A DNA stretch of 64,000 nt from Escherichia coli (lineage in GTDB: Bacteria > Pseudomonadota > Gammaproteobacteria > Enterobacterales > Enterobacteriaceae), in the NCBI RefSeq assembly GCF_003790525.1, contig NZ_CP033635.1; one strand, given 5' to 3'. The notes below the pieces were generated by a model. The model saw nothing but the letters and a program-made list of their open reading frames with translations. It ran no database searches and was not told the DNA's origin. A program made the translations under genes and the position numbers. This document shows positions 44,937-47,592 of the stretch, one piece after another (within the stretch, counting starts at the first letter, position 1; each line of letters starts with the position of its first letter).

Positions 44937-44955
44937 AAAAGACACCCTCTGCCTA

Positions 44956-45378
44956 TCATTCGATAGTCTCAAAATATTCCACCTGCAGAGAATCACGGTG
45001 CTCAATGATGCAATAACGCTGGAAATTATTTGCATAATCACTTTTATCATGAAAAAACCATATACAATCGTTTTGTAGACTCGGTCCCATTCCTTTCAAA
45101 AAATCTATTAGCTTTGCTTTCTGAAGAAAAATATTATCTATATTTCGCCATGTAACAATCACTCTTGTTTGCATATCATCAACATTATAGTAATAGCTAT
45201 ACTCGGCTACGTTTGATATATTTGGCAAATTTCGCAAACTCTCTGGCGTATAAAGGAAAAATGGGGAAAGTTCATGCTGTGTATAGTGATGTTCCTTTGA
45301 CATCAATGAGATATAAGCATAGAAAAATATAAAGAATAAAACTAAAAATGATAATAAAATATAAATATATTTTGACAT
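44956..45378 (-). CDS. hypothetical single-pass membrane protein (gene B of the inserted pair)
   Basis: 140-aa ORF; N-terminal hydrophobic helix YIYILLSFLVLFFIFFYAYISL then a ~110-aa soluble domain; ATG sits 6 nt after the gene A stop (GTAGAG spacer); AT-rich. Confidence 0.7.
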   Translation of the reverse strand: MSKYIYILLSFLVLFFIFFYAYISLMSKEHHYTQHELSPFFLYTPESLRNLPNISNVAEYSYYYNVDDMQTRVIVTWRNIDNIFLQKAKLIDFLKGMGPSLQNDCIWFFHDKSDYANNFQRYCIIEHRDSLQVEYFETIE

Positions 45379-45384
45379 CTCTAC

Positions 45385-46233
45385 TCACGACCTGTGCGGA
45401 TAATGAGGGTTTAAGAAAAGAAAAAGCGGTCTTTCAAAGGGAGATTCTGAAAACTTTATAGCTCCCGAACTTGATAATGAACTATACAACTCATGATTTA
45501 TTCTGTTTTTATCTTTATAATAATTAGTAATAGGTCTATTATTATATTGATTATATAACAATGTTGAAAAAGACTCATCTAATGGCTTTATATAATTTAA
45601 CCATTCTGGAAGCTTCTTTTTTATTAGTTGATTTTTTTTAAAAGGAGGATGGGTTGTAAATAAGAATGGCGTAAACTCAGTATTTTTAAAATTCCCTGGC
45701 GCTCCATATGTATCCCATATTTGTAAGGCTTTTGTGTAAGATAAAGGTTTTGCCAATAAAAGTGGATCGGGGCCTGTTCCAAATACACGATAAAAACCAA
45801 TCAAGTCTGAGACTAAATCTTCTGCACTAAATCCGCTATCAGTATACCAGTTAAAAATAAATGAGTTTTGCCATGCTTCAAACCTCTTCGCAGTTCCATA
45901 CATTAACGTTAAGGCAACTCTTGCTTTAAGAGTGGGTGAAAGACATGAACGAACCATAACCTTCGTATAAACACCGGTATGAAATGTAAGATCTACTCCT
46001 AATATTTTTTCCCGAATTCCCATTTCCTGATGATAATCAACAGGAAAATACCAATCATGAAATTCATCGTAATATGTTGAAAAATGTTCTTGCTCCAATT
46101 TTCTTTTTAATATTCTGGCATCTTGTCCCTGAGCATGCCCCAAATCGATCCAACCTAACTCTTCGGTATAAACTAATCCATACTTTTTCGTTGTTGCAAA
46201 TATTCCATCAGTAATATCGTTACGTTTGCTCAT
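45385..46233 (-). CDS. hypothetical soluble protein (gene A of the inserted pair)
   Basis: ORF 45385..46236 (GTG) with an adjacent in-frame ATG at 46231-46233 preceded by a GAGGGGAG Shine-Dalgarno; 282 aa from the ATG, aromatic-rich, no P-loop or recognisable catalytic signature; AT-rich. Confidence 0.7.
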   Translation of the reverse strand: MSKRNDITDGIFATTKKYGLVYTEELGWIDLGHAQGQDARILKRKLEQEHFSTYYDEFHDWYFPVDYHQEMGIREKILGVDLTFHTGVYTKVMVRSCLSPTLKARVALTLMYGTAKRFEAWQNSFIFNWYTDSGFSAEDLVSDLIGFYRVFGTGPDPLLLAKPLSYTKALQIWDTYGAPGNFKNTEFTPFLFTTHPPFKKNQLIKKKLPEWLNYIKPLDESFSTLLYNQYNNRPITNYYKDKNRINHELYSSLSSSGAIKFSESPFERPLFLFLNPHYPHRS

Positions 46234-46714
46234 CACAATCTCCCCTCAAAAAAAACGTATAGCAAATAATATCAATAAGGAAAAATATTATTTTTCAATG
46301 TTTTTTTGTATACAATTCATTTTATGAATGAATTTACAAAGATAGCTGCGCCTGATACCGCTACACTTTTGCCAGACCATGTTCTCCTCTGAGGGAGTAA
46401 CTGGCGCTTTTCATAGAATGCCGTACTTTTTTCAACAACTGCCACATCGAACGGCATTTATGGTGGCGTGAAGTGCCTGCCATAACCGCTCAATGTGGTG
46501 TTCCTACGATGAACAAACCGCTTGATATATTCTCCTGATGCAACCGGACAATATGTTCATGATGGGTATCCCGATACATAAGCCTTCGTTTTATTTTTAC
46601 AAAAAGAAATCGTTGTCGATATTTTATCAAGAAAAAAATAATTCAGGTAAAACGATTCAACTAAAAATAACTAAAATTAATCCCCCGTGAAATATATAAA
46701 TAACGTCAGATGAA

Positions 46715-46743
46715 GAAAGCAAGGGGGGCCCCCCCTTGCTTTC
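46715..46743. terminator. perfect GC-rich palindromic hairpin immediately after the truncated araC stop
   Basis: gaaagcaagggggg-c-ccccccttgctttc, a 14-bp perfect inverted repeat with a 1-nt centre, directly following the tandem TAA TAA stops. Confidence 0.6.
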
Positions 46744-46746
46744 TTA

Positions 46747-47592
46747 TTATTCACATCCAGCCCTAAACTCGCTCGGGCTGGCCCCGGTGCATTTTTTAAA
46801 TACTCGCGAGAAATAGAGTTGATCGTCAAAACCAACATTGCGACCGACGGTGGCGATAGGCATCCGGGTGGTGCTCAAAAGCAGCTTCGCCTGACTAATG
46901 CGTTGGTCCTCGCGCCAGCTTAAGACGCTAATCCCTAACTGCTGGCGGAAAAGATGTGACAGACGCGACGGCGACAAGCAAACATGCTGTGCGACGCTGG
47001 CGATATCAAAATTGCTGTCTGCGAGATGATCGCTAATGTACTGACAAGCCTCGCGTACCCGATTATCCATCGGTGGGTGGAGCGACTCGTTAATCGCTTC
47101 CATGCGCCGCAGTAACAATTGCTCAAGCAGATTTATCGCCAGCAATTCCGAATAGCGCCCTTCCCCTTGCCCGGCGTTAATGATTTGCCCAAACAGGTCG
47201 CTGAAATGCGGCTGGTGCGCTTCATCCGGGCGAAAGAAACCCGTATTGGCAAATATTGACGGCCAGTTAAGCCATTCATGCCAGTAGGCGCGCGGACGAA
47301 AGTAAACCCACTGGTGATACCATTCGCGAGCCTCCGGATGACGACCGTAGTGATGAATCTCTCCTGGCGGGAACAGCAAAATATCACCCGGTCGGCAGAC
47401 AAATTCTCGTCCCTGATTTTTCACCACCCCCTGGCCGCGTATGGTGAGATTGAGAATATAACCCTTCATTCCCAGTGGTCGGTCGATAAAAAAATCGAGA
47501 TAACCGTTGGCCTCAATCGGCGTTAAACCCGCCACCAGATGGGCGTTAAACGAGTATCCCGGCAGCAGGGGATCATTTTGCGCTTCAGCCAT
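46747..47592 (-). CDS. araC: arabinose operon regulator AraC, C-terminally shortened variant (281 aa)
   Basis: ORF 46747..47643 trimmed to [15 protein letters not shown]; body matches E. coli AraC, but the last five codons are synonymously diverged (TTT AGG GCT GGA TGT GAA) and end in TAA TAA, lacking the terminal EKVNDVAVKLS. Confidence 0.9.

Follow-up and report, generated by a model that had tools for sequence, protein, structure and literature searches.

What is encoded by the AT-rich DNA that lies between araC and yabI in part of the Escherichia coli population, and which role might it play in the biology of its carriers? The question is raised by a stretch of 64,000 nucleotides from an E. 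coli genome (RefSeq assembly GCF_003790525.1, contig NZ_CP033635.1; hereafter the window), which is 100% identical to E. coli SMS-3-5, is reversed in orientation with respect to K-12 and displays the gene order thiP, thiQ (+), yabI (-), gene B, gene A, araC (-) and araB (+). While araC and yabI are separated by a gap of 85 bp in K-12, alignment of the junctions places the DNA that is extra in the window at exactly 44937-46765 (1.83 kb), in a region with a GC content of 25-42% (44850-46800) as opposed to 53-62% in the flanks. The AT-rich additional segment that had been noticed in a first-pass annotation, made from the sequence alone, is thereby confirmed in coordinates and composition. Equally, its two proposed products, a soluble protein of 282 aa and a partner of 140 aa with a single transmembrane (TM) helix encoded 6 nt downstream, are recovered by analysis of open reading frames (ORFs) and by TM prediction. 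The coding potential of both ORFs is upheld, as gene A possesses homologues (307 in a word-indexed search; 688 clusters at 50% identity in an exhaustive profile search) with approximately 40 invariant residues, and as confident AlphaFold models are obtained for both proteins. The two genes are located as follows.

45385-46233, minus strand: gene A, 282 aa, predicted toxin; ORF with ATG at 46233 and the Shine-Dalgarno sequence GAGGGGAG upstream

44956-45378, minus strand: gene B, 140 aa, predicted immunity protein; ORF starting 6 nt past the gene A stop codon

The answer proposed here, to which a probability of about two in three is assigned, is that genes A and B would constitute, by analogy with characterized toxin systems, an orphan interbacterial effector-immunity pair delivered by a contractile injection machinery, most likely a type VI secretion system (T6SS). 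The effector-immunity alternative among the functions initially considered for the locus is thus retained, since A belongs to a family of toxin domains and since the small membrane-anchored B behaves like an immunity protein.

Gene A as a CapCone-1 protein

Searches for A in PADLOC, NCBIfam, Pfam and PHROGs returned nothing significant (best traces PHROGs, E 0.2, and Pfam DUF4056, E 0.6), and a profile search of the PDB sequences gave no match at E up to 10. It was the weak DUF4056 trace that led to the computational definition of the Lipocone superfamily, which joins Wnt, serum amyloid A, VanZ and the TelC toxin and contains three CapCone families (Burroughs, Nicastro & Aravind, eLife 2025; PMC12419801). 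The CapCone signature consists of a Gly six residues before the active-site His with an xD four residues before the same His, of S/GxxSxx preceding the catalytic Asp with Phe-Ser just upstream, of an acidic residue in H3 (ancestrally Glu) and of a Gly capping H4 (PMC12419801).

The key residues of A are G27, D30, H33, E119, Q122, S133, F135, S136, D139 and G146. In a comparison of 47 homologues, the stretch G27-W-I29-D30-L-G-H33, with G27, D30 and H33 invariant, represents the Gly/xD/His signature, and the stretch S133-G-F135-S136-A-E-D139, with S133, S136 and D139 invariant and F135 conserved to at least 90%, represents the SxxSxxD signature. Equally, E119 and Q122 are invariant within the helix formed by residues 100-122 and G146 is invariant within the helix formed by residues 139-151; in the AlphaFold model of A (pLDDT 85), these two helices probably correspond to H3 and H4. 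Furthermore, the model contains a beta-hairpin clasp with an added strand (strands 60-77 and 80-95, plus 53-55). Four residues after the H4 Asp, at S142-D143, the small residue is kept while an Asp takes the place of the clade's usual Asn, a difference from the rest of the clade that is shared by the enterobacterial branch including A. This Asn is, however, described as 'usually' present in the clade and is hence not defining (PMC12419801), and the enterobacterial CapCone-1 entries of the same publication likewise read SD at this position.

When the per-family sequence files of this publication were searched with the motifs GWIDLGHA, TDSGFSGEDL and SDLLGFYR, matches were obtained in the CapCone-1 file only. 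Over residues 3-152, A is 78% identical to the listed CapCone-1 protein WP_129363493.1, compared with 28% identity to one CapCone-DUF4056 example. Because of the signature residues, the motif matches restricted to the CapCone-1 file and the 78% identity, A is classified by sequence comparison as a CapCone-1 protein, with residues approximately 3-152 representing the CapCone-1 (Lipocone superfamily) domain and the remainder representing a family-specific C-terminal part. The family has thus already been described computationally in 2025. With an operon of this type also on record (PMC12419801), the first-pass designation of the locus as an undescribed system does not hold, and neither does its statement that a catalytic signature is missing, as His33, Glu119 and Asp139 as well as G-x5-H and SxxSxxD are present in A.

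Related assignments were considered and discarded. An identity of A as Pfam DUF4056 (PF13265), that is CapCone-DUF4056, was rejected with the E value of 0.6 and the absence of the motifs from the CapCone-DUF4056 file, and a beta-barrel outer membrane protein, the neighbour expected for CapCone-DUF4056, was not seen among the loci examined. The hallmarks of prok-TelC, an Asp six residues after the H4 Asp and similarity to TelC, were not found in A either.

No TM segment is present in A, and the maximum 19-residue hydropathy across the A family is 1.53. As a separate observation, the branch comprising E. coli, Citrobacter and Rahnella differs from other CapCone-1 proteins by an extra C-terminal segment of around 60 residues (A residues ~220-282, window 45388-45575), which is absent from the forms of ~233 aa. 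Two motifs of its own, INHELY and NPH.P, are conserved in this segment, for which the model is less confident (pLDDT 52-86); a possible role would be that of a signal for loading or targeting, to give one example.

Gene B, delivery contexts and a proposed mechanism

For B, a word-indexed search retrieved E. coli copies only, and nothing significant was found in Pfam and NCBIfam, including no match to DUF1795. The B family was therefore recovered from the genomic context, by taking from each of 80 related loci the ORF that follows A; these loci had been fetched with one genome per species, and all of their flanking ORFs had been clustered. A B-type ORF of 135-158 aa with an N-terminal hydrophobic helix is situated directly downstream of A in approximately 65 of these 80 loci, commonly with a 4-nt overlap. 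In the family alignment, a Y…YTP…LK…PRIS segment is conserved, and two cysteines are present in most cases. Members possess one TM helix, with an N-in orientation in 57/65 and two cysteines in the outward domain in 40/65. The AlphaFold model of B itself (pLDDT 94) consists of a TM helix (residues 3-26) followed by a beta-alpha-alpha-beta-beta-alpha-beta-beta-beta domain, a PsbP/MOG1-like alpha/beta fold with two cysteines that is structurally similar to Mog1/PsbP/DcrB/DUF1795 proteins. The better structural matches are extracytoplasmic anchored domains, namely the PknH sensor, DcrB, LpqN and TiME, and the soluble domain of B is predicted to face the periplasm.

B diverges much faster than A, with identities of 24-63% as compared with 48-76% for A and 92-95% for the neighbouring AraC. 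In Pectobacterium (locus L053, 7001-8587) and Photorhabdus (locus L075, 6989-8661), tandem B-like genes follow one A, which looks like an immunity-gene array. As B is TM-anchored and outward-facing, diverges fast, is found duplicated and stays intact where A is broken, and as A does not possess a hydrophobic segment to which an Eag chaperone could bind, we infer from sequence that B is an immunity protein and not a chaperone. Immunity of the Imm-BamE type (a two-helix hairpin followed by three beta-strands) was also considered and rejected for B because of the wrong topology.

The surroundings of the CapCone-1 domain connect it with several delivery modules. Of the 80 loci, 13 have hcp (TssD, TIGR03344, E 4.9e-54) adjoining the pair; these represent five or more distinct genomic contexts, and hcp is the only recurrent neighbour that is independent of the local gene order. 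The order hcp-A-B is encountered in Buttiauxella, Rahnella bruchi, Pectobacterium and Brenneria, while a convergent hcp is located directly after B in Xenorhabdus and Photorhabdus; the Buttiauxella A next to hcp belongs to the same long subfamily (280-293 aa) as the E. coli A. The CapCone-1 domain equally occurs directly after the Rhs-associated core in protein P0269 (TIGR03696, E 2.5e-20) and after the eCIS-core/DUF4157 domain in protein P0274 (E 5.4e-32), and a Foldseek search relates the domain to an RHS protein of Cryomorpha (E 3.5e-9). In protein P0268 (323 aa), an N-terminal LysM (peptidoglycan-binding) domain is fused to the CapCone-1 domain, a domain combination that would fit an action at the cell wall or in the periplasm. 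The hcp, Rhs and DUF4157 links independently reproduce associations reported for CapCone-1, for which 94 RHS and 21 DUF4157 N-terminal fusions and, as downstream neighbours, 89 PsbP/Mog1, 23 Imm-BamE and 8 HCP have been counted, and for which standalone genes in an operon with a PsbP/MOG1-domain gene have been tied to the T6SS (PMC12419801). Some genomes harbour several paralogous A-B pairs; in Rahnella bruchi (locus L016), two pairs are located 3 kb apart (7001-8324 and 10226-12090), the second of which is preceded by hcp.

In the proposed mechanism, A would be a cytoplasmic, signal-less toxin with a predicted His33/Glu119/Asp139 active site that would be exported and injected into a rival cell. 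As no hcp is adjacent in this genome, the pair would depend for this export on a T6SS encoded elsewhere in the genome. Known chemistry in the Lipocone superfamily is confined to TelC and PTDSS (head-group exchange), from which cleavage or exchange of phosphate-linked lipid head groups has been predicted (PMC12419801). By analogy with these two enzymes, A is predicted to act on the rival cell from its periplasmic side and to cleave off or exchange a head group linked through phosphate, whereby a membrane lipid or an undecaprenyl-linked envelope precursor would be the candidate substrate. B, which is translationally coupled to A, would be a single-pass inner-membrane protein that binds and blocks A molecules coming in from sister cells at the outer face of the inner membrane.

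TelC is a lipid II phosphatase toxin of the Lipocone superfamily that is soluble and active only outside the cytoplasm (PMC12419801). The TelC-TipC pair of the Streptococcus intermedius type VII secretion system has provided the functional template for the mechanism proposed for A and B, as TelC shares the superfamily of A and as the membrane-anchored TipC acts at the outer face of the membrane. A two-gene layout, a signal-less effector, a periplasm-exposed immunity protein and a lipid target, as predicted for A-B, are also features of the Tle-Tli phospholipase pairs. Equally alike in two-gene layout, signal-less effector, periplasm-exposed immunity and lipid-linked target is the T6EC1/DUF3289-T6IC1 pair (Geller et al., 2024). 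In both the Tle-Tli and the T6EC1-T6IC1 systems, however, folds and catalytic residues are unrelated to those of A-B, and toxicity and secretion have been proven, whereas A-B is known from sequence; the T6SS lipid II effector T6EC1 belongs to a different, Colicin-M-like family.

The closest described system is the CapCone-1 plus PsbP/MOG1 operon, with which A shares 78% identity to a member and all family motifs and B the reported fold (PMC12419801). While this description is purely computational and treats the partner as a T6SS marker, the partner is characterized here as TM-anchored, outward-facing, fast-evolving and kept after the loss of A. The locus adds a new E. coli member to a computationally defined family and is an entry point to CapCone-1 biochemistry. 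Here a CapCone-1 pair that is both small and intact is available in ordinary E. coli, among them an environmental group F strain with a sequenced genome. The substrate, the immunity versus chaperone role of the partner and the delivery route thereby become testable in a standard host, with the uropathogen CFT073, in which A is broken and B intact, as a natural control. A more far-reaching combination can be put forward as a tentative extension, more prone to fail than to hold when taken as a whole. It states that the pair is an active weapon in E. coli without a dedicated hcp, that A is the first T6SS-delivered Lipocone enzyme and cleaves, within the periplasm of the rival, a lipid-linked envelope precursor or a phospholipid head group, that B represents a new membrane-anchored PsbP/MOG1 immunity class derived from the Eag-chaperone fold and that loss of the module through its 18-bp repeats has created the 11-residue tail of the K-12 AraC.

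Distribution, decay and rival explanations

With presence defined as at least 80% coverage of the 1.8-kb segment, 486 of 5,426 complete E. coli genomes (9%) are carriers, and the segment resides at the araC-yabI site in every record listed. SMS-3-5, CFT073 and ATCC 11775 are among the carriers; SMS-3-5 is a member of group F, which clusters with B2 (PMC2808357). The survey establishes the segment as accessory and not core, as had been supposed for the locus at the outset. Beyond E. coli, Citrobacter and one Salmonella lineage carry the segment at the same araC-yabI site, and the low GC content of the module is seen in every genus examined. On the opposite side of the ara genes, between araD and polB, a long-form A-B pair is found in Leclercia, Trabulsiella, Enterobacter sp. 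ENT03 and two Buttiauxella; in these loci (L012, L013, L014, L015 and L017) the pair lies at about 6400-8300, and in Buttiauxella hcp is situated upstream.

Several points weigh against the reading of A and B as a T6SS-delivered effector-immunity pair. No hcp, vgrG or PAAR gene is present within the window, no hcp remnant is found upstream of A, and the module-linked hcp of Buttiauxella has no blastn relative in E. coli genomes. With 32 kDa, A exceeds the size of classical cargo of the Hcp lumen. The partner with the PsbP/MOG1 fold has been taken as a marker of T6SS delivery and not of immunity (PMC12419801). No experimental work on CapCone-1 proteins was found in the literature searched, so that toxicity and substrate are extrapolated from distant relatives. 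Finally, approximately five of 26 sampled carriers, chosen as a spread sample, are annotated with three ORFs and thus with A broken by annotation; with A broken in roughly one fifth of the sampled carriers, the pair may be decaying in E. coli.

A first rival explanation is that the locus is evolutionary debris, in which hcp has been lost, A is silent or on the way to becoming a pseudogene and only B is functional, as an orphan immunity gene against the related toxins of neighbours. Besides the missing hcp in the window and in the E. coli blastn search and the carriers with three ORFs, an IS630 remnant between araC and A would agree with such a decay, as would the condition of A elsewhere. In CFT073 (locus L099, 1636-2483), A is split into ORFs of 77 aa and 190 aa with B intact; in a Salmonella copy (locus L094, 4014-4857), A is frameshifted near codon 19 with B likewise intact, and a truncated 202-aa A cluster in E. 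coli comprises 385 member sequences. On the other hand, A in the window is not truncated, retains all of the invariant residues and is preceded by a good ribosome-binding site, the largest A cluster is the 282-aa form with 963 member sequences, and the pair is intact in Citrobacter and in most Salmonella copies. Debris is a plausible state for part of the E. coli population; as the explanation of the locus in general it is considered unlikely.

The remaining explanations assign a different task to one or both proteins. If B were an Eag/DUF1795-type (PsbP/MOG1) T6SS adaptor or chaperone that loads A, with immunity absent or encoded elsewhere, this would be in line with the view that a PsbP/MOG1 partner is diagnostic of T6SS secretion (PMC12419801). 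However, B possesses an N-in TM helix and a cysteine pair in its outward domain, and A is without a TM segment. Eag chaperones are soluble and cytoplasmic and bind the TM segments of effectors. Since, in addition, the better structural matches of B are extracytoplasmic anchored domains and B evolves faster than A and outlives it, a chaperone role is regarded as quite improbable; the classification of B as an Eag/DUF1795 chaperone was rejected on the basis of the TM helix, the predicted outward domain and the failure of Pfam and NCBIfam to return a match.

A housekeeping module of the cell envelope, with A modifying lipid or peptidoglycan precursors of its own cell and B acting as membrane docking partner, is suggested by the many Lipocone families that are metabolic enzymes of lipid, peptidoglycan and exopolysaccharide pathways (PMC12419801), and by a pair in Yersinia that resides among core genes, between ndh and mfd, and recurs in many assemblies. 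Without a signal peptide or TM segment, however, A would not reach periplasmic head groups unaided, and the patchy presence, the frequent pseudogenization of A, the several divergent paralogues in some genomes, the fusion of the domain to Rhs and eCIS delivery modules and the rapid divergence of the partner B all make a housekeeping function very improbable. Lowest of all ranks an anti-phage or abortive infection function, in which B would detect the entry of a phage or damage to the envelope and set A free to destroy the cell's own membrane lipids, although Min-Wnt, another Lipocone family, is found in antiviral contexts (PMC12419801) and AT-rich accessory DNA is compatible with a defence locus. 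PADLOC-DB v2 contains no family that matches A or B at E up to 1, no recurrent defence genes are found near the pair in the 80 loci, and the antiviral row of the superfamily survey holds only Min-Wnt, with CapCone-1 placed solely under polymorphic toxin systems (PMC12419801). The links to Rhs, eCIS and hcp point to export, and a periplasm-facing B would be poorly placed to restrain a cytoplasmic toxin. The idea of a defence island, which the first-pass annotation had entertained, finds no support, as a PADLOC match is missing and as the recurrent neighbour is hcp instead of a defence gene.

The araC junction

The second question raised by the locus is how the segment came to separate araC from yabI and how this relates to the AraC protein of K-12. 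The features relevant to this question are the following.

46747-47592, minus strand: araC, 281-aa form ending RAGCE* (ORF; sequence comparison)

46750-46767, minus strand: left direct repeat TTTAGGGCTGGATGTGAA, which supplies the functional 3'-terminal codons of the 281-aa araC; the TAA stop is at 46747-46749

44923-44940, minus strand: right direct repeat TTTTGTGCCGGTTGTGAA, second, non-coding copy of the araC 3' end

44887-44936, minus strand: non-coding remnant between B and yabI, identical to the last 16 codons plus stop of the K-12 araC (…AGCEEKVNDVAVKLS*)

46361-46500, minus strand: incomplete, frameshifted remnant of an IS630-family transposase gene, situated between araC and gene A (annotated by PGAP in SMS-3-5, whose sequence is identical)

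46721-46736, no strand assigned: G/C-rich perfect palindrome, AGGGGGGGCCCCCCTT within AAGCAAGGGGGGGCCCCCCTTGCTT, 10 nt past the araC stop codon and inside the extra DNA

The 281-aa ending of AraC is common to Citrobacter, Salmonella, Leclercia, Trabulsiella, Enterobacter and two Buttiauxella species, and by this sequence comparison it is the 292-aa AraC of K-12 that is the exception among the Enterobacteriaceae examined. To describe the module as inserted into the 3' end of araC, as had been done previously, is therefore misleading. E. coli, Citrobacter and Salmonella do not differ in the last 12 nt of the left repeat and the adjoining stop codon (GCTGGATGTGAATAA). The right repeat agrees with the left repeat at 14/18 positions and with the K-12 araC at 17/18, and the 36 nt that follow it are identical to the end of the K-12 araC. 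A decayed right-hand remnant is present in Citrobacter and Salmonella too, with the layout and site as in E. coli; at the old stop position, the Salmonella remnant has TAA, whereas E. coli and Citrobacter have GAA. The DNA that encodes the extra 11 residues of the K-12 AraC (EKVNDVAVKLS) is non-coding in the window, in Citrobacter and in Salmonella, as deduced by comparison of window positions 44887-44940 and 46747-46767 with the K-12 locus (L011, 2209-2266) and with loci L002 (7410-7470) and L093 (5289-5458).

As the DNA of the tail is non-coding elsewhere and as TAA in Salmonella stands against GAA, the sequence comparison indicates that the K-12 tail arose by loss of a stop codon with read-through into formerly intergenic DNA. 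The junction offers an account of why the K-12 AraC is 11 residues longer than other enteric AraC proteins. Possibly, the module was lost in the K-12 lineage by recombination between the 18-bp repeats, which left the stop-less right copy in frame; in the alternative direction, these repeats may have served for an acquisition of the module by the B2/F lineage. A recent import from Citrobacter by homologous recombination was rejected, since the E. coli flanks match K-12, with 97-100% (left) and 99-100% (right) identity in the 200 nt beside the two junctions.

The imperfect direct repeat of 18 bp formed by the araC 3' end, the IS630 remnant and the G/C-rich palindrome are features that the first-pass annotation had missed. 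The IS630 remnant shows a blastn match of ~82% to IS630 transposase genes elsewhere in E. coli; in the Citrobacter and Salmonella versions, the spacer between araC and A comprises merely ~166-168 bp and thus leaves no room for it. A promoter scan of the locus gave no excess over shuffled sequence. The palindrome at 46721-46736 fits a terminator pattern on both strands and may, judged from its sequence, act as the araC transcription terminator in carrier strains.

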